In this document: in pieces, positions 2,373 through 61,579 of the stretch
Layout of the letters: each line of letters opens with the position of its first letter
How positions within the stretch are numbered: position 1 is the stretch's first letter
Notes under the pieces: model-generated
Told to the model about the DNA's origin: nothing
What the model saw: only the letters and a program-made list of their open reading frames with translations
The model's database searches: none
Position numbers and translations under genes: made by a program
NCBI GenBank assembly: GCA_947475005.1
Contig: CANJLI010000002.1
Coordinates: 2,256-66,255, forward strand
Length of the DNA stretch: 64,000 bases
Reading direction: 5' to 3'
Source of the DNA: Deltaproteobacteria bacterium
GTDB taxonomy: Bacteria; Bdellovibrionota_B; Oligoflexia; Oligoflexales; Bog-1112

Positions 2373-2409
2373 AGAAAAAAAAGAAAAAAGAAAAAAGAAA
2401 AAAGAAGTG

Positions 2410-5987: not shown

Positions 5988-6122
5988 AGCATGCCCCCTC
6001 CGTATGCGAAAGTTTCTTAGAGCATGCCCCCTCCGTCATCCCAAGGCTGCGTAGCAGCCGTATGGGATCTCGATAAAAACACAGGGATCCCATACGGTCC
6101 CTTCGGGACCTTGGGATGACGG
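5983..6122. repeat. Palindromic repeat, P module (full copy) plus 21-bp direct repeat
   Basis: cttagagcatgccccctccgt occurs twice (5983-6003, 6016-6036). Then ccgtcatcccaagg..ccttgggatgacgg (6033-6122) with inner hairpins gctgcgtagcagc, ccgtatgggatc/gatcccatacgg and gtcccttcgggac. Lies between convergent genes. Confidence 0.85.
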
Positions 6123-6129
6123 ACTGCGC

Positions 6130-9868: not shown

Positions 9869-10066
9869 GGATGACACACCCTCCGTCATCCCAAGGCTGC
9901 GTAGCAGCCGTAGAGATTGGGGACAGTTACCGAATTATTGAGTAGGAGGGGCTCACGCCCCTCCTACTCAATAATTCGGTAACTGTCCCCAATCTCTACG
10001 GTAACTGTCCCCAATCTCTACGGTAATTCGGTAACTGTCCCCAATCTCTCCCCCCAATCTCTCCCC
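9869..10066. repeat. Repeat cluster: P left half, 94-bp nested palindrome, degenerate tandem right arms
   Basis: ggatgac..gtcatcc hairpin, then P left arm. Palindrome 9908-10001 (ccgtagagattggggacagttaccgaattattg..caataattcggtaactgtccccaatctctacgg). Then partial repeats of taactgtccccaatctct. Confidence 0.85.
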
Positions 10067-20800: not shown

Positions 20801-21150
20801 TTAAGGGACACCCGACTGCCGCTTCTTTTCCTTACATTCAAGATGGCAACCCATCCGTCATCCCAAGGCTGCGCAGCAGCCGTATGGGATCTCGATAAAA
20901 ACGCAGGGATCCCATACGGTCCCTTCGGGACCTTGGGATGACGGATTTCCAAGGAGTTAGGCAAATCGTACGCTTGCTTACATTCAAGATGGCAACCCAT
21001 CCGTCATCCCAAAGAATAATTAAAGGGACAATAATTAAAGGGACACCCGACTGGACCCGAATTGTCTATATTTTCATCAATTCGGGTCCAGTCGGGGGTG
21101 TCCCTTAATTCCTAAATTCATGGGATCCCTTCGGGACCTTGGGATGACGG
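20798..21150. repeat. Repeat cluster: intact P module, duplicated flank, and a second P module interrupted by another palindrome
   Basis: Intact P at 20855-20944. 24-bp flank cttacattcaagatggcaacccat at 20831-20854 and 20977-21000. Second P arms at 21001-21012 and 21122-21150 are separated by palindrome 21033-21110. Confidence 0.85.
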
Positions 21151-30204: not shown

Positions 30205-30284
30205 GGATCGGGTCCACCTACCGAATTATTGGAGATGGAGGCATATGCCTCCATCTCCAATAATTCGGTAGGTGGACCCGATCC
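30205..30284. repeat. 80-bp perfect nested palindrome
   Basis: ggatcgggtccacctaccgaattattggagatggaggcatatgcctccatctccaataattcggtaggtggacccgatcc. Shares layers with 2225-2309 and 9908-10001. Confidence 0.9.
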
Positions 30285-30290
30285 AATTTT

Positions 30291-30394
30291 TTATCGAGAT
30301 CCCATACGGCTGCTGCGCAGCCTTGGGATGACAGGACGGCTGCTGCGCAGCCTTGGGATGACAGGACGGCTGCTGCGCAGCCTTGGGATGACGG
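30291..30394. repeat. P-module right half with the 30-bp arm unit in three tandem copies
   Basis: ttatcgagatcccatacgg followed by cggctgctgcgcagccttgggatgacagga three times (30307, 30337, 30367; last copy ends ..gatgacgg). Abuts the guaB stop. Confidence 0.85.
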
Positions 30395-46625: not shown

Positions 46626-46737
46626 GATGACATCCTTTTTATTTGGATACTATACGATGAGTGTAATCATGGTTTTGAAATAAGGGAAATTTTTCTTATT
46701 TATTTAAGGGGGGGGATGAAATCGGGGGCACCCACCA

Positions 46738-46916
46738 GTCATCCCAAGGCTGCGTAGCAGCCGTATGGGATCTCGATAAAAATGCAGGGATCCCATACGG
46801 CCCCTTCGGGACCTTGGGATGACGCAACGGTCCAAAAGGGACCTTGGGATGACGCAACGGTCCAAAAGGGACCTTGGGATGACCGGAACGGTCCCAAAGG
46901 GACCTTGGGATGACGG
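46738..46916. repeat. P module with right-arm unit repeated in tandem
   Basis: Full P at 46738-46823. Then gcaacggtccaaaagggaccttgggatgac twice (46824, 46854) and a variant (46884-46916). Confidence 0.85.
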
Positions 46917-46926
46917 AAAAAGAATA

Positions 46927-51078: not shown

Positions 51079-51282
51079 AATGCCCTCCTAGAAATAATCT
51101 GTCAAAGCTGATTGTGCCTTACCTGGAGCAAATTTCCCAATTTCAGCCTTTTTTTTCTTCGCCAGCCACCTTTTTGCCAAAAAGAAGGCTCCATCGGCCT
51201 CTCTTTTTGGCTTTTCTCGTTTCCCCTTGACTATTTTTCCAAATCACATTACCTAGTTCAAGTTCCTTTTCCATTCTCCTAA

Positions 51283-51359
51283 GCGGGAGTAGCTCAGTTG
51301 GCTAGAGCGTCGCGTTGCCATCGCGAAGGTCGAGGGTTCGAGTCCCTTTTCCCGCTCCA
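51283..51359 (+). tRNA. tRNA-Gly (anticodon GCC), CCA encoded
   Basis: Hand-folded cloverleaf: acceptor gcgggag/ttcccgc, D arm gctc..gagc, anticodon stem tcgcg/cgcga with loop ttGCCat, T arm gaggg ttcgagt ccctt. Close to E. coli tRNA-Gly(GCC). Confidence 0.93.
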
Positions 51360-51369
51360 CTTTTCTTTT

Positions 51370-51394
51370 ACCACCGTAGGTGGTGCCTTTTTTT
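51370..51394 (+). terminator. Small terminator hairpin after tRNA-Gly
   Basis: accacc gta ggtggt, then gcc and a T7 run. Confidence 0.5.
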
Positions 51395-51413
51395 AATTTT
51401 TACTTTTTTATTT

Positions 51414-51933
51414 GGGAACCAGCTGCGCAGTTTCCCAAACCCTCCTTGCCACGCACTTGGGAAGCAGTAGCTTTTCTTTTGGTTAACACCTTAGAAGCCA
51501 AGGCCGGCGCTCGCTCGGGGCCTCCCACCCTCTCAAAATCGCAGAGCAAGCTCCCGTCATGGACAGTAATAACCAGGCTGCGATTTGTGACCCGGGTAGG
51601 TCCCCCCAAGCGGCTGCCCTTGGCTCCTCTTATGTTAACCGAAAGAAATCCTACCCCGTTCTCTCGATGCTACCGAGAATCTTTGCAGCGGCGGGAGAGC
51701 TGTGAATGAATCCAAAGAAGACATAGGGAAGGGCAGCCAGGTAGAGGGATCCCGACGGGTTGTAAATCGCAGCCTGGTTATTACTGTCCATGACGGAGGC
51801 CCTGTCTGCGATTTCAAGAGTCGGGAAGAATCTGCCTGAGCGCCGGCCTTCCCTCTGCCGTCTTTGGATTCATCCACCGCTCTCTCAATGCGAGGCAAGG
51901 AAGGGTCTGGGAAAACTGCGCAGCTGGTTTCCC
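51414..51933. repeat. Composite twin-hairpin palindromic element, copy 2 (inverted relative to copy 3)
   Basis: TIR gggaaccagctgcgcagtttccc (51414-51436) vs gggaaaactgcgcagctggtttccc (51909-51933). Long hairpins at ~51470-51651 and ~51708-51871. Confidence 0.85.
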
Positions 51934-52047
51934 AGAAATAGAAAAAAATAAAAAATAACCCGCCAGACAGGTAATTTTTTTTCCTTTCTTTTGTTCACCA
52001 TACATTTATAATTGGCCAAACGGTCAAAATTATAAATGGAGTGCGTC

Positions 52048-53934
52048 ATGGCGAGTTGCAGCCCACAAAATCTGGGGAAATTGCTACTCTGTGGTCTTCT
52101 GGCAAGTGCCTGCGGAGAGAATCCAACGAGTACCCTGCAGCATGATGTCCGCCAACCTACCCGCGTTACGACGGATTGGAATTGGGTCACCGTGTCTCGC
52201 GATGATTTCATGAGTCATTCTCTCAATATGGGCCCTGTACCGGGTCGCTTTCCCATTGCAGACCAATTCAAAGCGCTAGAGGAACGGGCCACATTTTGGG
52301 TCAATTTGCTCGACAAGAAACTGCGCGCTCAATACCCCCAGAAAATGAAGCAAGTCCCAGTACCTCAAGTGCAAGTAATTACAGATGACTCCCCCAATGC
52401 GTTTATTACAGCTGGATTTAGCTGCTATGAAGTGCCCCTTCAACTTGCAGACTCAGGTACCACGGTGGGAAAAGTGCTTTGGAGGCCCATAGATGGGGGC
52501 GGGGAATTCCTACACTGGCCAGACGAATTTGCTTGTCTACCCGCAGAGCCCAGCTCTCTTTTTGCAGCCATCCAAGTATTTAATGCTGCAGAAGGCAGCT
52601 GTAAACTTCATGTAACAAATGGAGCGATAGCCCTTGAAGGCAAATGCGACACCGGCTCCAGCTTACAAGGCGTAGGGAATGCGAAATCCATCGTGCTGCC
52701 CCGCACAGCAAACTGGGTCACCATTCATGCAGGATTGTTTCCGTTTATGCCAACAGAGGATGCTTTCGTCGGCGTTCTCATGCATGAGCTGACCCATTAC
52801 TATCGCTCCCACATGACTCAACTGCCGGGTGAATATAATTTTTTCTACCAACGAGGAGAAGAAAATGAAAATCACCGCCCAGAACCTCGCCCAGATCTAT
52901 TGGCTGAAGGTCAAAAAGCCATTATCGCCAGTCATATTTTGGGCCAGGAGCGCATGCCCCTCCTCCCAGGGCAAGAACTCGCCCCTGAGCTTTATTTAGC
53001 CGCCGGTTCTCTTGCAGAGGCACAATGCGCGGGTAATCCAAATTGTGCCAGCAGTTGCCAGGAAATCGTAAAACTGGCTACCACTAGAGAGTTTATCGTA
53101 AAGATGGGTCTATATCCCTTCTCTCCTGCAGATCAAAGCACCTATACGCGCTTTGAAGCCACCATGATGCGCTGCTTGCGTACAATCCCTGCAGCAGGTG
53201 CATACGACAGCCTTAAAGAGTTCATACTGGCCCCCACATGGATTCCATTTCGCAAGAAGCTATCTCCCGATACCCTGGCCATGCTCGGTGCGATACTGGG
53301 GCGCGTGATCCCAAGATTGCCAGCGACGCTTCCGCGACCGTCCTATCCCAGCGCAAAAGAAATCACGATGGATATCAGTGCCATTTTGAACCTACAGATC
53401 AAGATGGCGATGGACATCCTCACGGAAGCTCATGAAAAAAAGATTGGCTTCTACACCGACGAACAAGAGGCAGATGAAGCATCTATCGAATGGCTATCCC
53501 TACTCGGCCTGAAACCAAGCGCAGGTGTAGATACCTATCTCACATTGGCCGGAAACTCTACAGAGGCGAGCTTCGGAGGGTTCATCTGGGGCGGCAAAAC
53601 CTGTCAGGATCTATACCGCAATCACTGGAGAGATCAGAACGGCAATGCAGTGATTGTTCCCATAGGCAATTTTACAGACACCCATCACAGCTCTTGCTTC
53701 CGAGCTTACAATGCGGATTTGGAGATTCAAGCGCACCAATATCCGTTGACACCCTCTGAATCTGTTGTCGCTATTGGCTTATCTTGGGAAGAAATCCAAA
53801 GAATCGCCACTCGTGCCACAAGCCCGCTACGCAAGGGCACTGAAGAAAAGATGCCCCCCGCGGTTAGCGCTGCAAAAAAGCGGGTAATCGCCCTGAACAA
53901 ACACTGGCACGAATGCCCATGGGCACCTAAGTAA
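52048..53934 (+). CDS. Putative zinc metalloprotease lipoprotein (HEXXH)
   Basis: ATG at 52048 with ggag 6 nt upstream. Lipobox LLASAC. VLMHELTHYY (HEXXH) and distal EQEADEASIEWL recall the M48 family but with a very long insert. Confidence 0.72.
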   Translation: MASCSPQNLGKLLLCGLLASACGENPTSTLQHDVRQPTRVTTDWNWVTVSRDDFMSHSLNMGPVPGRFPIADQFKALEERATFWVNLLDKKLRAQYPQKMKQVPVPQVQVITDDSPNAFITAGFSCYEVPLQLADSGTTVGKVLWRPIDGGGEFLHWPDEFACLPAEPSSLFAAIQVFNAAEGSCKLHVTNGAIALEGKCDTGSSLQGVGNAKSIVLPRTANWVTIHAGLFPFMPTEDAFVGVLMHELTHYYRSHMTQLPGEYNFFYQRGEENENHRPEPRPDLLAEGQKAIIASHILGQERMPLLPGQELAPELYLAAGSLAEAQCAGNPNCASSCQEIVKLATTREFIVKMGLYPFSPADQSTYTRFEATMMRCLRTIPAAGAYDSLKEFILAPTWIPFRKKLSPDTLAMLGAILGRVIPRLPATLPRPSYPSAKEITMDISAILNLQIKMAMDILTEAHEKKIGFYTDEQEADEASIEWLSLLGLKPSAGVDTYLTLAGNSTEASFGGFIWGGKTCQDLYRNHWRDQNGNAVIVPIGNFTDTHHSSCFRAYNADLEIQAHQYPLTPSESVVAIGLSWEEIQRIATRATSPLRKGTEEKMPPAVSAAKKRVIALNKHWHECPWAPK

Positions 53935-54116
53935 GGCGAATCCTGCGCCCTTACCCCCTCGCTACCTACCCATTTTACGATGAAAATGCCGCTCATTTTT
54001 GCAGAGAATGAGGAAAGGGCACCCACATTGTGATTGCTCATCTTGCCAAGGCAAGCTAGAACTTTCTTTGTAAAAATTGAGTGTTGCGATCACGCGCTTT
54101 TTTATGGGGTAGCGAT

Positions 54117-54428
54117 ATGAACGAAGAAATGTTGAATTCCACTCTGTCCGCCACTGTCCATCCTATTGCTGGCGCCCAAGAGGAAAAATTAAAAAAGCGG
54201 CGCCGATCCTCTAGCAATTATCTAAGCTATGAAGAAGCCCAACTTTTTGCCCAAACCTTGGGCGTACAATCTCGCAAGGAATGGCGAGAATACGTGAAAG
54301 GGCTACGAGCGGAATATGCAGCCAAGCCAGAGAGCATCCCCTCCCATCCAGATGGAATCTACAAAACCAAAGGCTGGCAAGGCTGGCGACAATGGCTCGG
54401 CACTGATAAGCCCAAAGACCTGAACTAA
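54117..54428 (+). CDS. Small hypothetical protein with a KGW..W..WLG repeat unit
   Basis: ..LSYEEAQLFAQTLGVQSRKEWREYVKG....PESIPSHPDGIYKTKGWQGWRQWLGT. Recalls units annotated as integrase-repeat in other genomes (from memory only). The start is uncertain between 54081 and 54117. Confidence 0.5.
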   Translation: MNEEMLNSTLSATVHPIAGAQEEKLKKRRRSSSNYLSYEEAQLFAQTLGVQSRKEWREYVKGLRAEYAAKPESIPSHPDGIYKTKGWQGWRQWLGTDKPKDLN

Positions 54429-54548
54429 CCCTTTCCTACATCCAAACGCAGCCTTCAATGCCTTGATTTAAATAGATAAATCGACATTATTCCGTTTCCT
54501 TCTCATTCCTGACGATAAGACCAGCGTTATGGAAAAAGGAGGTGGAAA

Positions 54549-54926
54549 ATGGGTTGGCCTATACAACTTTTATTCGCAATTTCTTTGGGGTTATTCGGCG
54601 CATCTATAAACGGAAAAGCTCCAGCCTCCAAGCATTACATGGACGGCGTGGCTCAAAAGCTTCAAGACACCTACTGGACCCGGTGGTATCGAACTCACAC
54701 CAGCAAATCCCATAGAGATATAGAAGGGGAACTGCAGACCTGGCAGCACTTCGATCAAATTTTTCGTCATGATGCTAACGATCCCCTCACCCTTGAAGAA
54801 AGGGAAAAGCAGAGATGGGAGGGGGAAAATAGACCTGAAGGCACTATTTTTACACAGCCCACTGCAGAAGTGTGGCAAGTTCTGCCTCTTCATAGCGAAT
54901 CCACAGGGTCTCCGATTTCTCAATAA
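54549..54926 (+). CDS. Hypothetical small secreted protein
   Basis: Strong aaggagg 6 nt upstream and a signal-like N-terminus. The 3' end overlaps the convergent NFACT gene by 77 nt. Confidence 0.5.
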   Translation: MGWPIQLLFAISLGLFGASINGKAPASKHYMDGVAQKLQDTYWTRWYRTHTSKSHRDIEGELQTWQHFDQIFRHDANDPLTLEEREKQRWEGENRPEGTIFTQPTAEVWQVLPLHSESTGSPISQ

Positions 54927-56238
54927 GCCAGAGCCCAGCCGGCAACCCCTTTTTCTTTCGTAAATAGCGTCGCTGGGTACAATACACCTCTGCCTCCCGC
55001 CCCCGTCGCACTTTGGAGTAATGCACGGCATAAATGCCAGCCTGTCTTTTGAGATCTTCCGTCATTTGCCGCCCTGGCAAGGTTCGAAGGGGCACAATTA
55101 CATGAGAGCCAGTTGTTCCCACCACGTGAAACCAATAATCATTGGCCTGTGCTGCTTTCGTCATCACATCGTTTTCCGATGGACTCTTACCGATGAGAAA
55201 AGAAACCTGGTGTTCGTTTTCAAACACACGATAGGGAAGGCTTTCCTTCTCCACAGCAGCACTCACCGAACGAGGTTGAGGTGGAGTCAACTGGTAGCGA
55301 GTTAAGATGCGCTCCACAGCCTCCCAGGGGAGAGGATCCCCCTTTAGCGTTGCCAGAGCGGCCTCCAAACCCTGGGCTTCCTTTTCTGCAGAGTCAAGAT
55401 ACCGCGTGGCAACTTCTGTGGCTCGCTTGCCCTTCTTTACCGCCTTAAAGCGCCCTTCAATTTGAGCACCCAAGGATTTGTCAGGGTCCAACGTGATCAC
55501 GCGATTACTTTCCTCTCCCGTTTCTTCAGGCAAAAGTACGATCTCTGCTGCCTCCGCAGGAATGCGAGCTCCGTACATTTGCAGCCATTTGGCCTCGGCA
55601 AGAAGCTGGACTGGATCCTCGGGTAGCTGATGGTGTAGACGTGCAATGGACTTACGTACCGTACGCAATTTTCGCTTGAGTTGATCTTTGGCGCTGCGCT
55701 GGTACCCAGGGATGTTGGTTTCGAGCCCTGAGGGTTGCTCCTCTTCTGAGGCTTTCTCTTCCTTCTCCTCTGGAGTCTGCAAGGCAGCTTCGATCCATTG
55801 GGCATACACGTTTTGGAAATGGCTCTCAGACGGTTCAGGAAAGACACCCTCGTAGGCTTTCTTTTTCGTGAAGGTACCTTTTTCACCGAAACGAAGTAAA
55901 TCCATACGATCTGGTGACAACAAATGCACTTGTCGATCTTTACCGGCACCTTCTACCCAGAGATACCACGTGCCTTGTAAGTTGGAGAGCGGTAGCCACG
56001 TTTCATGGGTACGCGGATCCCACCAAATTTTTTCGATACGGGCTGTAGGGATATGCTTGCGCAACAAGCCCACCAGGGGGTGTGCTGTGCTGGTGGATTC
56101 TGGTTTTTCTGCTAGCCAGCGTACTGGCTGTACCTCTTGGGGGTTAAGCGCTAGGTAGCGCTTTTTTCTTTCGACAGATACTTGCCAGACTAGTTGGGTT
56201 TGACAGAACCAATGTTTTTGGATTTGGATATATTTCAT
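54850..56238 (-). CDS. NFACT-R (DUF814) domain protein, RqcH/FbpA-like
   Basis: C-terminal ..NDYWFHVVGTTGSHVIV..AGIYAVHYSKVR..EVYCTQRRYLRKKKG..G (DUF814). Central Glu/Lys coiled coil. The start is taken at MKYIQIQ (56238) because the upstream 42 codons lie in repeat copy 3. Confidence 0.78.
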   Translation of the reverse strand: MKYIQIQKHWFCQTQLVWQVSVERKKRYLALNPQEVQPVRWLAEKPESTSTAHPLVGLLRKHIPTARIEKIWWDPRTHETWLPLSNLQGTWYLWVEGAGKDRQVHLLSPDRMDLLRFGEKGTFTKKKAYEGVFPEPSESHFQNVYAQWIEAALQTPEEKEEKASEEEQPSGLETNIPGYQRSAKDQLKRKLRTVRKSIARLHHQLPEDPVQLLAEAKWLQMYGARIPAEAAEIVLLPEETGEESNRVITLDPDKSLGAQIEGRFKAVKKGKRATEVATRYLDSAEKEAQGLEAALATLKGDPLPWEAVERILTRYQLTPPQPRSVSAAVEKESLPYRVFENEHQVSFLIGKSPSENDVMTKAAQANDYWFHVVGTTGSHVIVPLRTLPGRQMTEDLKRQAGIYAVHYSKVRRGREAEVYCTQRRYLRKKKGLPAGLWLIEKSETLWIRYEEAELATLLQWAV

Positions 56239-56271
56239 TTTTTTTCTCTCTTTTTTTCTTTTTTTTTCTAA

Positions 56272-56789
56272 GGGAAACCAGCTGCGCAGTTTTCCCTTAA
56301 ACCCTTCCTTGCCTCGCAAGGGGAGAGTTGTGAGATCCCTTTCAATTACCATGTTAGATGCCAAGGCCGGCGCTCAGGCAGATTCTTCCCGACTCTTGAA
56401 ATCGCAGACAAGACCTCCGTCATGGACAGTAAAAACCAGGCTGCGATTTACAACCCGTCGGGATCCCTCTACCTGGCTGCCCTTGGCCCCTCAAATGGTA
56501 ACCGAAAGGAATCCGACTGCTCTCCCGTAGCTGCAAAGATCTGGTAGCAGCGAGAGAGTGGAGATACATTTCCAGAATGGCGCGCCAAGGGCAGCCGCTT
56601 GGGGGGACCTACCCGGGTCACAAATCGCAGCCGAGAGCTTACTTCCATGACGAGAATACTGTCTGCGATTTTGAGAGGGTGGGAGGCCCCGAGCGAGCGC
56701 CGGCCTTGACGTGTCATTCTGGAAATACATCTCCATTTTCCCCTTGCTAGGCAAGGAAGGGTCTGGGAAAACTGCGCAGCTGGTTTCCC
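56272..56789. repeat. Composite twin-hairpin palindromic element, copy 3
   Basis: TIR gggaaaccagctgcgcagttttccc (56272-56296) vs gggaaaactgcgcagctggtttccc (56765-56789). Long hairpins at ~56334-56513 and ~56568-56726. T-rich and A-rich tracts reach the flanking start and stop codons. Confidence 0.85.
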
Positions 56790-56804
56790 AGAAAGAAAAA
56801 AAAA

Positions 56805-59800
56805 CTAAGAAGGCTCGTTCCATCTATTCGCAAGGTTTCCAACCTCTCTATCGTAGGTAAAAAACCGAATGATCAAGGCAGCAAAATAGGTCCCTGCCCA
56901 CGTAGGATCTTCGTACTCTTTCAACCACGAAAATTTGAGTCCCCAACATTTGGAAGGAGACGAATACTGCATCGCAGCAGACACCCTCTCTTCACGAGCA
57001 GCATCCACCTCGTACAACGTACGATTTCCATACTCAAATAAAGTCTCAATGTGCGGTATCAAAGTCGAACGAAGCCCATAGGTTTTCGTAAGGGTCTTTC
57101 GCGCAATAAACCCACCATTTACTGGGTCTGCAGTCAGGTTATTCTCCAAGCCAAGACCCAATGTTAGAGTGGTATCAAATACCGTAGGTGGCGTTAAGGT
57201 GTAAATCGACTCAACAGCTGTATGGGAATAAAGATTGAAACGACTGCGCAGTGCTAGAGTCCAATTCCTCCATGCACTAGACACGTTGCTTCGTAACTCA
57301 GACCAGGGTTGCGGCAACGCATTCTCCGGTATTTGAGGATCTTTCTGCAATTCTTTTCGCTGTCTGGCTTTCACCCAGTCATAATCGATATCAGCCTGTG
57401 CACTGAGAGGCGCTTGTTGATTCGAACGCTGCAGTGAATATCGATTGATATTCCACTCACCGATTTTTGGATTATACAAAGATCGCGTATTATGAATGGA
57501 CTCATCAAGACCCAACGTTAACTCTTGTTGCGCTTGCTCACGCACCGAAAGAGAGGCAGCGCCTGCCTTCGATACAGATTTGGGTGTAAGGTTCCAACCC
57601 TCATCAAATAAAAACCAATCGTGATTGGTGGATAAAATAATTTTCTGATGGGGAAACATAAAATCTTGTTCAGGCAAATAATCGGTTCCAATATTGTTTT
57701 TTAAATCACTGGGGAAATAAGTCAAATAGGGATCACGTGGCTTGAGATTGCCATTTGCATCCGGTGTATATTCACTGGCTATTTCCCCATATTGCCCACG
57801 TCGAACCACGAAGGGACGCATGGAAAGCGTTACCTTCCAGGTCATGCGATGCTCCAACCAAGACTGGACGTCAGGATTTTCCCCTGCAAGCAAGGGCATT
57901 TTCCCCTCCATGGGCAACGAAAGATTGAGTCCAAATCGAACCGTACGCATGGAGGAGAGAGAGCTACCTTCCCGATTCAAATCAGGCTCTTTTGCAGGAG
58001 AAGCGGCGGAGGCAGTTTTGTACTCCTGCAGCTGACTGGAAATCGAACGCAACTCACCCACAGAAAAAGCATCCAAGAGAAAAATTTTATCGGTCAAAAT
58101 AGGGGTCATCAACTGCAAGCGAAAACGACGCCATCCTCCGTTGGAAAGCGCAAAAGTTTGGCTCCCAGGAGGCGCATTCTGCTGAAAAGCAGGGTCCGAG
58201 GCATACGAAAGTTGACGCATCGTAAAATCAGCCTGCCCATAGATGGGATGAGGCAAATACGAACGACCGAAGGAGAAAAAACGCGATTGCAACTTTACCG
58301 CAAGTGGATTTTGGTAGCCAGAAAATCGAGAGTTAAGCAACATCTGATCGCCCCAATGGCTCCCAACCCCGAGATAAAAATTTTCTGCATCGAGATGGGA
58401 CTGCACATGAACTTTAGAAAAAGTTTGAGGCAAAAGTGGATCAAATACATCGAGTAAGTTGGTGAAATACAAATCTTGGGTATATCGATGGTCCGTCACC
58501 ACATTCCCTTGACTCATAAAAGACCATCGAGGGGCAAGAAAGGTTTGCCCTTTCCACTGGACCTTACCACGCCCCCCTCCGGAATATCCCTGCAAAGACT
58601 CTAGGACAGATGCAATACAAGCGTCCGGATCCGAACTGTCCAAACAATTTTTGCCTTGTGGCATCGAAGCCCACCAGCCTGGGTCCTGAATCGTGGGGGC
58701 TTGAAGATTTAAATTGGCACGTTCGGTGGGTGTCATGGCATCATAACGGGTTTTTGCGGTTTTAAAACCAGCTTCATACTGATAGCTCACCGTTTGCCTC
58801 GTGGCTTTTTGGCCGAGCTGGAGACGATCTTGAAGACCTTCTACCTGCGTCTCCCACCCCGAGTAAGTGCCCCTCTCATGTCGATACTGTGCCCCCAATC
58901 GAAATCCTCTTTTTTCGATATAATCGGTAGTAATCGTCGCATCCTGATCTTTACCGATATCCAAAAAGAGAGATTCTGAAAAAATATTTCCATTCAAGCT
59001 GTCATAAGTAATCGAGGGTAGTAAAAAACCGGATTGCCGTTCGCTTTTTGCCGGTATCCGCAAATAGGGCAGATATAAAACTGGAACCCCTTTAATTTCC
59101 AAGACCGGATTATACAAATCCGCATACCCCTCGACTTGAGCATTGATTTTCTCCGCTTGAAAAGCCCAAGCAGGGCTTTCATCAGCCGCACAAAAACAAG
59201 GCGTTAGGTATCCATTGGTGGTTCTCACCTCATATTGGTGAATGCGCTCGATGACTTTTCCCTGCAAACGAAAATATCCCAAATGCAACACATTCTGATT
59301 GTTCATCAATGCTTTTTCTTGGCTATCCTTCCAGAACTGACGCCGTCGTTGCAGCTGCTTGTAGCGTTCAGATTGAATTCCAAAGTGAGCAATATTTTCT
59401 TGCCCCTTGATATGAGCTTCCTCTCGCAACAAAATTTCGTACTGTGCCTCTCGTTCTTTTTTTTCGGAAGAGGAAAGATTCGGATACTGTTTCAAATATT
59501 GTGCACGAGCCGCATTTTTTTTGCCCTCAATTTCCTGCAACCATCTTTGCCGGTTGACTTCAAATTCAATCTCCTGAGGACTAACCCCCAACACAGATTC
59601 TACAATTTTTTTGACTTCGGCTTCTGAGTTAGCTGTAAGAAGAGCTTTGGTGAGGCTAAAATCTCCCGTATCCAAATCGTAGTGCAGTTCATCTCCGGTA
59701 AAAACCTGCTGGGAACTAATCAACAGGATGTTACCTCTTGCCTCGAAGGTTTTTTTGATCCGATCGAGCTCAATATGATCCGCAAGGATCAGAGTGCCTG

Positions 59801-61439: not shown

Positions 61440-61579
61440 GGGGACACCCGATGCGAGTGTCCCCAGAGGGATCCCAAGGTCCCGCATGGGATCCCTGGGT
61501 TTTTATCGAGATCCCATACGGTCCCTGCGGGACCTTGGGATGACGAAAGAGGAAGGGGACACCCCGTTGGAGTGTCCCC
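61440..61579. repeat. Repeat cluster: G module, degenerate P module, G module
   Basis: ggggacacccgatgcgagtgtcccc (61440-61464). gggatcccaagg..tatcgagatcccatacggtccctgcgggaccttgggatgacg (61468-61545). ggggacaccccgttggagtgtcccc (61555-61579). Confidence 0.8.

Follow-up and report, generated by a model that had tools for sequence, protein, structure and literature searches.

A composite palindromic repeat with nested, covarying hairpins from an uncultured Oligoflexia-like bacterium

Architecture of the locus

The window analysed here, a stretch of 64,000 nucleotides, contains three copies of a non-coding repeat of ~520 bases with nested hairpins, located at 1909-2373 (copy 1), 51414-51933 (copy 2) and 56274-56790 (copy 3). 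While the copies differ in detail, they follow the same general plan: inverted hairpin units of ~40 nt form the termini, and between them lie two long arms with a small central hairpin in the middle. Each long arm consists of an outer stem and a 128-nt module of type A or type B, the second module of a copy being in reverse orientation. The two module types are ~74% complementary when inverted. The parts of copy 2, its immediate surroundings and the landmarks of the other two copies are listed below.

51283-51359, + strand: tRNA-Gly(GCC) gene (ARAGORN; Rfam tRNA, 65.9 bits), context outside the element
51369-51385, + strand: terminator-like hairpin of the tRNA gene, with a T-rich tract behind it that reaches the element
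51414-51933, strand undefined: copy 2, the entire composite element of nested hairpins; the orthologous site is empty in the related loci L062 and L115
51414-51452, - strand: left terminal unit of copy 2, with hairpin GGGAAC/GTTTCCC, core AACCAGCTGCGCAGTTT, then inner arm AAACCCTCCTTGCC
51453-51496: left arm of outer stem 1 of copy 2, pairing with 51625-51655
51497-51624, + strand: module A of copy 2, forward, 128 nt; covariance model R1, 140.9 bits
51625-51655: right arm of outer stem 1 of copy 2
51656-51700, - strand: small central hairpin of copy 2, flipped relative to copies 1 and 3
51701-51725: left arm of outer stem 2 of copy 2, pairing with 51854-51888
51726-51853, - strand: module B of copy 2, reverse; covariance model R1, 141 bits; closing helix GGGAAGG/CCTTCCC
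51854-51888: right arm of outer stem 2 of copy 2
51889-51933, + strand: right terminal unit of copy 2, with GGCAAGGAAGGGTCT, then hairpin GGGAAAAC/GGTTTCCC around the core
51958-51972, - strand: mirror-image terminator-like site, immediately right of copy 2
56274-56790: copy 3, with module B forward at 56360-56487, central hairpin forward, and module A reverse at 56584-56710
1909-2373: copy 1, with module A forward at 1989-2116 and central hairpin forward
2225-2309: perfect palindrome inside copy 1, with 41-nt arms and a 3-nt spacer, a member of a separate repeat family also present in the window

Module B of copy 2 is 98% complementary to 56363-56484 in copy 3. In copy 1, the second module is broken off after GCCAA, and the unrelated perfect palindrome at 2225-2309 stands in its place; several other perfect palindromes, with spacers of 0-4 nt, are found in the window. 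All three copies are flanked by T-rich sequence on the left and A-rich sequence on the right, with no direct repeat. The two flanks might be an inverted duplication, but they are ~71% complementary, about as much as low complexity alone predicts. One solo unit, in locus L029, has a perfect 19-bp stem that extends into its T/A-rich flanks. The neighbours of the copies are housekeeping genes. A protein-coding reading of the element was rejected, since the open reading frames inside it correspond to the module translated from one strand or the other and lack a conserved ATG (module A of copy 1 has ATA).

The pairing within copy 2 far exceeds chance, with fold z-scores of -16.0 for the + strand as RNA, -16.6 for the - strand as RNA and -15.1 for DNA. 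The minimum-energy fold takes one of two shapes. In copy 2 (both strands) and copy 3 (+ strand) it is a long single rod, in which module pairs with module; in copy 1, the copy in locus L090 and copy 3 (- strand) each arm folds on itself, giving three arms with the paired ends as the closing stem.

Copy 2 follows tRNA-Gly and its terminator, which a preliminary description made from the letters alone had taken for a typical landing zone of mobile DNA. The order of the features is as described, with the tRNA gene at 51283-51359 and then the terminator. However, the neighbourhood is incidental: copy 2 starts 55 nt past the tRNA, on the far side of the terminator, and neither of the other copies is beside a tRNA. 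Integration targeted to the tRNA was rejected on the same grounds.

Segment exchange among the copies

Copy 2 had been described as the same element in inverted orientation, an account that holds for some of its segments and not for others. As a whole, copies 2 and 3 match at 81% over 476 nt on opposite strands and at 73% over 576 nt on the same strand. The modules have been swapped: the first module of copy 2 is the reverse complement of the second module of copy 3 (90%), and its second module that of the first (95%). The central hairpin has been flipped relative to copies 1 and 3, with 76-80% identity on the opposite strand (76% in the comparison with copy 3) versus 61% on the same strand. 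However, the right end is co-linear in the two copies (93% same-strand versus 83% opposite-strand), as is the first outer stem (same-strand identity of 75% for the right arm and 61% for the left arm). The left end matches at 84% on either strand and is therefore uninformative.

Copy 1 combines segments in yet another way, carrying module A forward as in copy 2, but with an outer stem and a central hairpin that match copy 3. Since the outer-stem arms did not travel with the modules, no single inversion explains the copies; one inversion of the whole element, or of its whole interior, was rejected given that the arms beside the modules stayed co-linear. Judged by these alignments, the three copies are mosaics with segments exchanged between copies, and not one element in two orientations.

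Paired changes in the arms

The closing helix of module B reads GCCAAGG/CCTTGGC in copy 3 (56360-56366/56481-56487) and GGGAAGG/CCTTCCC in copy 2 (51726-51732/51847-51853), so that the swaps reported earlier are confirmed at exactly those coordinates. Over all 128 positions, the B modules of copies 2 and 3 differ at 7; four of the differences are the compensated swaps of the closing helix and the other three are in the apical loop, with zero stem changes left uncompensated. In copy 1 the outer-stem arms of the A-bearing hairpin are exact reverse complements, as had been stated (1962-1995/2110-2143; 34/34 complementary). The left arm of copy 2 carries 10 changes relative to copy 1, of which 3 are compensated (C:G>T:A, C:G>A:T and G:C>A:T), 1 gives T:G and 6 are broken, again in agreement with the first count. 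With 10 left and 5 right changes over 34 positions, chance would produce ~1.5 coincident and ~0.5 complementary changes, against the 3 seen.

The proposal that pairing rather than primary sequence is kept is supported, also beyond the window. Nine module copies from three genomes, amounting to ~six independent lineages, share a hairpin whose 4 helices comprise 35 pairs and whose asymmetric internal loops are conserved. In their alignment 94.8% of the cells are paired, and 19 of the 35 pairs have changed on both sides; 0 of 500 shuffles attain this or any other of the measures, and the score is 0.406, compared with <=0.12 in slid controls. The outer stems pair in every copy despite unrelated sequences between genomes.

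Some features of the module do not vary at all. All nine modules have the same G.T at alignment columns 10/122, the same bulges and identical CCTCTC and ACCCG motifs, and the differences among A copies lie nearly all within the apical loop. The covariance model R1 scores ~135-143 bits on one strand and 25-28 bits on the other, and an R1 search of 685 kb of loci returned no modules besides the ten already known. Asymmetric features that never vary, the G.T among them, would suit one functional strand, RNA included, and in this respect count against the explanation preferred below.

RNA or DNA as the paired molecule

One explanation for this conservation is a function as RNA: the modules, or the 0.5-kb element in its entirety, would be non-coding or cis-regulatory structured RNAs whose fold is selected, the repeats being gene copies or passengers. 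It would account for the strong covariation of the module across three genomes, for the invariance of unpaired and asymmetric nucleotides and for the strand specificity of R1, and the elements are located where read-through transcription is likely. However, the evidence on strand use points the other way. The ratio of G:U to A:C, which the preliminary description had proposed as a guide to the transcribed strand, gives no strand signal, with 4 cells of each among the non-Watson-Crick cells of the module alignment, and cells changed on both sides number 47 versus 4 with one-sided wobble changes. In five elements, fold energies and G:U counts are alike on both strands. No sigma-70-like promoter is found in or near copy 2. 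Rfam 15, searched around copy 2 at the gathering score or at E up to 5, matches the tRNA only, and Rfam searches of the window and six related loci give nothing over the unit or the module, the matches obtained being off-target (a fragment of an unrelated group II intron and a chance match to an sRNA). Furthermore, the orthologous sites in relatives lack the element, and although the three copies are co-linear on the + strand, two of them have the same sense as the neighbouring genes and one is antisense to them. We consider an origin as selected RNAs distinctly unlikely.

A DNA-level reading is favoured over RNA because G:U and A:C are equally rare, both strands fold equally well and there is no promoter-like site. 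Two mechanisms had been put forward for the preserved pairing, selection on a fold and arm-to-arm templated repair. The evidence leans towards copying between DNA arms together with selection on a fold available to both strands, and not towards an RNA made from one strand.

Read from the alignments, two tracts record arm-to-arm conversion directly. In copy 2, modules A and B are identical over 33 nt, a stretch with a private T that module B of copy 3 lacks, and the apex of module A in copies 1 and 3 differs from that in copy 2. The second tract is the outer stem of copy 1, where the left arm perfectly complements the right arm, and this right arm recurs unchanged in copy 3. Copies 2 and 3 have a different left-arm state, 'TTAGA', in common, and the perfection of the copy 1 stem thus appears to be derived. 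Changes of this kind can come from template switching at quasipalindromes, which is documented in E. coli: one arm templates the other, and 'compensated' changes arise without selection (PMC7202029).

A recent conversion within the palindrome had been named as a finding that would undermine the case for preserved pairing. Such a conversion is what copy 1 appears to record, but it leaves unexplained the asymmetric features that are invariant across genomes. As invariant asymmetries would vanish under homogenisation alone, selection on the module also seems to be needed.

The same consideration bears on the possibility that the element is a functionless quasipalindrome, its symmetry produced by replication template switching, fold-back priming and gene conversion alone in a palindrome-tolerant genome. 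The visible conversion tracts, the perfect palindromes elsewhere in the window and the outer stems, which are unique to each copy or genome and nonetheless pair, would all fit this possibility. However, the bulges, the G.T, CCTCTC and ACCCG have stayed invariant though the flanking genes differ by ~30% at the nucleotide level, the A copies differ almost exclusively in the apical loop, and the dispersal of near-identical modules requires a copying mechanism. Symmetry arising without any function is in our judgement decidedly improbable.

The terminal unit and its relatives

In the terminal unit, a short hairpin enclosing the 17-mer core AAACTGCGCAGCTGGTT comes after a GGCAAGGAGG-like sequence. 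This core occurs 6 times in the window versus 0.16 expected, and in the genome collection it is found in >100 stretches among the matches listed. Most of the listed stretches belong to the uncultured assemblies JACPKR01, CANIBL01, JAGNWK01 and CALBMD01 (labelled Deltaproteobacteria, Oligoflexales or proteobacterium), and a few to Clostridia assemblies. Scattered matches inside genes of unrelated bacteria were dismissed as chance, as were 5 matches in viral contigs, none of which has the hairpin or the GCAAGG context. A blastn search of plasmid and phage collections gave no match, and metagenome pattern scans for the module and for the full-length element gave 0 matches each. A literature search on the core sequence gave only an unrelated human primer, and one on Oligoflexia repeats gave nothing relevant.

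The exact 17-mer was the search key, and its invariance is partly an ascertainment effect. The search had not demanded the GCAAGGAGG motif upstream of the unit, which is conserved, Clostridia assemblies included. The stem of the unit covaries over 20 variants, with a score of 0.615 compared with 0.209 in shuffles and <=0.255 when slid.

Units and modules are carried in different settings. Inverted unit pairs (left -, right +), separated by 349-438 nt, are present in the window (3) and in loci L090 and L084. CANIBL01 has the same composite architecture, with a full copy at L090 5447-5950 and copies in L010 and L023 truncated at the ends of their contigs; its outer stems have no sequence relationship with those of the window, yet they are paired. 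JAGNWK01 contains one module in a perfect 20-bp outer stem, within a different inverted-repeat pair. JACPKR01 carries the unit within a 144-nt element whose terminal inverted repeats measure 25 nt, and the 8-bp flanks of this element match at 7/8 in two of its seven complete copies. Given that the terminal inverted repeats of this carrier are different from the unit, the unit may be cargo rather than a transposition end.

In three genomes, then, the module is nested within palindromic carriers of different kinds. It could be a new structured motif of Oligoflexia-like bacteria in its own right, either an ssDNA recognition structure of hairpin-dependent mobilisation or a functional RNA, in which case the GCAAGGAGG-plus-hairpin unit would be a cross-phylum signal and not a lineage-specific selfish repeat. 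We regard this combination as unlikely.

The placement of the units raises the question of a role for the host. In JACPKR01 they lie 12-48 nt past stop codons in either orientation, copy 2 is flanked by two facing terminator-like sites, and the GCAAGGAGG beside the unit is conserved even in Clostridia assemblies. This would suit a host-domesticated DNA or RNA site, comparable to the secondary roles of REP/BIME, ERIC and Correia repeats: an RNase III or 3'-end stabiliser hairpin, an insulator separating transcription units or a protein-binding site. However, the unit is not an intrinsic terminator, a candidate function rejected given that a T-run lies ahead of the hairpin and an A-run behind it on both strands. 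Moreover, relatives without elements at the same sites make no site-specific need evident, and domestication of this kind seems very unlikely.

Occupancy in relatives and the search for an enzyme

Locus L062 of CANIBL01 is syntenic with window positions 51150-58715, with ~70% nucleotide identity. A comparison of the region downstream of tRNA-Gly in related genomes had been suggested at the outset; in L062 this region measures 119 nt and has no element, versus 627 nt in the window. The copy-3 site of L062 contains only a lone unit hairpin, between the LptD stop and the start of the next gene. L115, a more distant relative, has the same gene order with both sites empty, the two genes at the copy-3 site being 12 nt apart. 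The element is present in the window species and absent from the copy-2 and copy-3 sites in these relatives, with one solo unit kept. At ~70% nucleotide identity the relatives are too diverged to fix the exact element ends, and the window copies themselves show no clean insertion boundary. Short-read contigs of the window's own species end inside elements.

The search for an enzyme covered the 64-kb window and about 0.7 Mb of genome fragments. Pfam identified no transposase or integrase, and no Y1_Tnp, among the 38 window proteins and 10 open reading frames beside units. Similarly, phmmer with a single valid probe (IS200 TnpA) gave no match among the 4,239 open reading frames of the window and loci. 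Of the segments in the loci that are bounded by units or by inverted repeats, none encodes a transposase, and no long element bounded by the JACPKR01 terminal inverted repeats was found. The segments between units hold ordinary genes, which are aldehyde dehydrogenase-like, Lgt-like and protein kinase-like as judged from their translations, and include GAPDH and an ABC ATPase according to Pfam.

These results also bear on site-specific recombination sites, whether integron attC-like or of another kind, and on IS200/IS605-type palindrome-associated elements. As in such systems, structure rather than sequence is conserved, and the bulged bases of the module hairpin are conserved as well. However, RYYYAAC/GTTRRRY boxes are absent: the module, closed by GCCAAGG/CCTTGGC, is devoid of AAC/GTT cores, and the modules come in inverted pairs instead of same-orientation arrays. 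No integrase or Y1 transposase was found nearby. Unlike the ends of IS200/IS605 elements, which have subterminal hairpins on the same strand and no terminal inverted repeats, each end unit is the reverse complement of the other (loops CAGCTGCGCA and TGCGCAGCTG). Membership in either group is exceedingly improbable.

Comparison with known repeat families

MITEs, Correia, ERIC and BOX elements and the BIMEs of E. coli are small intergenic palindromic repeats, some of modular build (A-B-C in BOX, mixes of REP orientations in BIMEs). The element described here resembles all of them in being small, non-coding, intergenic and strongly folding, with terminal inverted repeats in the form of the ~40-nt unit. 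A mosaic or modular build and the nested insertion of other repeats, seen here in copy 1, are further points in common with this group. However, its sequences are unrelated to those of any of these families. The window copies also differ from them in having no target-site duplication and no matching autonomous IS in the fragments searched, and MITE hallmarks, namely terminal inverted repeats and near-matching 8-bp flanks, are confined to the related 144-nt element of JACPKR01.

Parvoviral terminal repeats exist as flip/flop hairpin isomers, and the present copies are similar in that the outer stem is retained while the inner hairpins stand in swapped order. The module swap nevertheless leaves the adjacent outer-stem arms behind, and a single interior flip is insufficient to convert copy 2 into copy 3. 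Flip/flop and template switching are in any case mechanisms and not element families.

The closest likeness is to REPINs, inverted doublets of REP sequences that form hairpins and are mobilised by RAYT transposases; compensatory changes are common in them, an alternative clover fold exists, and singlets are read as remnants (Bertels & Rainey 2011, PMC3116915). Like REP sequences, the unit is short, palindromic, abundant and extragenic, being intergenic and near stop codons, and its stem covaries. As in REPINs, an inverted doublet of units surrounds a spacer, here with paired ends and a folded interior, and the alternative of a long hairpin or a clover-like form exists here too. Compensatory hairpin changes occur in both, and the solo unit at the copy-3 site of L062 resembles a singlet remnant. 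There are also clear differences. The spacer, at 390-440 nt, is ~ten times longer than the tens of nucleotides found in REPINs and contains two 128-nt modules and a central hairpin. REP stems have a conserved GTAG on the 5' side, whereas no GTAG lies beside the stem of the terminal unit; the motif is present only within the central hairpin (CCGTAGCTGC...GGTAGCAGC) of copies 1 and 3. REP systems have a cognate single-copy RAYT gene (Y1/HUH) with units on both sides; no RAYT was found here, although a single IS200 probe against the fragments searched is a weak test. Finally, the unit also occurs singly, inside other carriers. The element is not classed as a REPIN, but it probably works like one.

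Weighing these lines of evidence, we judge it somewhat probable that copy 2 is a multi-copy, non-coding, non-autonomous REPIN/MITE-like palindromic repeat of an uncultured Oligoflexia/Bdellovibrionota-like bacterium, its hairpins kept by DNA-level conversion together with selection on the module. In the two tracts, one arm has overwritten its partner, through intra-element gene conversion or hairpin-templated strand switching at the quasipalindrome. Purifying selection would maintain the module hairpin, to which both the invariant asymmetric features and the 19 covarying pairs point. The fold may matter as ssDNA exposed in replication or transposition, where it would be the target of a putative trans-acting enzyme, by analogy with REPINs and RAYT transposases.

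Implications

A practical effect of the elements is that they break short-read assemblies of the window organism. The element is also a clear natural case in which 'compensatory' hairpin changes come at least partly from DNA arm-to-arm copying and not from RNA selection, a caution for covariation-based RNA discovery in repeat-rich genomes. A hairpin unit and an SD-like motif are shared across phyla. For the poorly studied Oligoflexia/Bdellovibrionota-like lineage, the finding would extend the range of REPIN-like repeats to a form with an unusually long, modular and structured spacer.

The terminal unit in other genomes

The terminal unit, a hairpin of ~40 nt with a 17-nt core, an inverted pair of which closes each of copies 1 to 3 of the nested-hairpin element, carries the sequence GCAAGGAGG(TG), which is conserved in all units, for example at window 51889-51903 (right unit of copy 2) and in the consensus from the related uncultured assembly JACPKR01. 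The motif is a perfect Shine-Dalgarno-like sequence, and its complement in JACPKR01, CACCTCCTT, agrees with the anti-Shine-Dalgarno terminus of 16S rRNA. At one locus (L019), the unit stops just short of the following gene's ribosome-binding site.

The combination of GCAAGGAGG and hairpin also occurs in a different phylum, inside long palindromic elements of Clostridia genome assemblies:

L084, 260-700: palindromic element containing the unit
L045, 760-1240: palindromic element containing the unit
L042, 2400-2530: palindromic element containing the unit

The placement of the unit differs, being at the outer ends of the element in L084 and close to the centre in L045, and the elements have an additional motif, GAGCGCAAGTCG, in common. 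In JACPKR01, a 144-nt element bounded by 25-nt terminal inverted repeats (GTAATGCGTAAGCCACTTGGGGCAA) contains a single unit hairpin together with another hairpin rich in G/C, exemplified by the following loci:

L083, 5388-5533: 144-nt element
L087, 5411-5553: 144-nt element
L026, 5648-5793: 144-nt element

Two of the seven complete copies have 8-bp flanks matching at 7/8 positions, as would be consistent with a target duplication of 8 bp.

The unit can also stand alone. The solo unit at ~6941 of L029 has a fully complementary 19-bp stem that extends into T-rich and A-rich flanks (TTTTTTACTGGG ... CCCAGTAAAAAA), suggesting that flanking T- and A-runs can belong to the palindrome. Immediately to the right of copy 1 lies an A-rich tract (window 2374-2407, GAAAAAA x4) followed by a small hairpin, GTGCTACTTAGCAC; on the minus strand this would read as a hairpin and then a T-run. 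In the Oligoflexales locus L037 (JAGNWK01), a single module, the type of hairpin carried inside the copies, is found at 1106-1228 within a perfect 20-bp outer stem. Both are enclosed by another inverted-repeat pair (889-913/1273-1297), and the whole (889-1297) adjoins a tandem duplication of ~60 nt; a group II intron fragment occupies 1-42 of the same locus.

Other palindromic repeats of the window

Repeats of the nested-palindrome or tandem type are unusually abundant in the window. A second nested palindromic family (GTCATCCCAAGGCTGCGTAGCAGCCGTATGGGATC...), unrelated to the element of copies 1 to 3, contains small inner hairpins, the loop of one of which includes GTAG, and also forms short tandem arrays:

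6028-6123, 20850-20945, 46731-46826 and 61452-61547: second nested palindromic family
30288-30392 and 46793-46918: short tandem arrays of 30-nt units of this family

In bacteria, a long perfect palindrome is not normally stable. Three perfect palindromes occur in the window:

9908-10001: arms of 45 nt, spacer of 4 nt
2225-2309: arms of 41 nt, spacer of 3 nt
30205-30284: arms of 40 nt, spacer of 0 nt

Two of the three share the outer arms GGATYGGGTCCACCTACC and differ in inner content.

Gene neighbourhood and assembly

Near copy 2, window 52036-53934 encodes a 632-aa protein that gave no match in Pfam and for which just four homologues were found among 5.8 billion proteins; those whose surroundings were checked all lie in this one conserved gene neighbourhood. 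Other samples yielded three contigs that belong to the same species as the window (L103, L113, L114); they end within copy 2 or copy 3, and these repeats thus break short-read assemblies of this organism.
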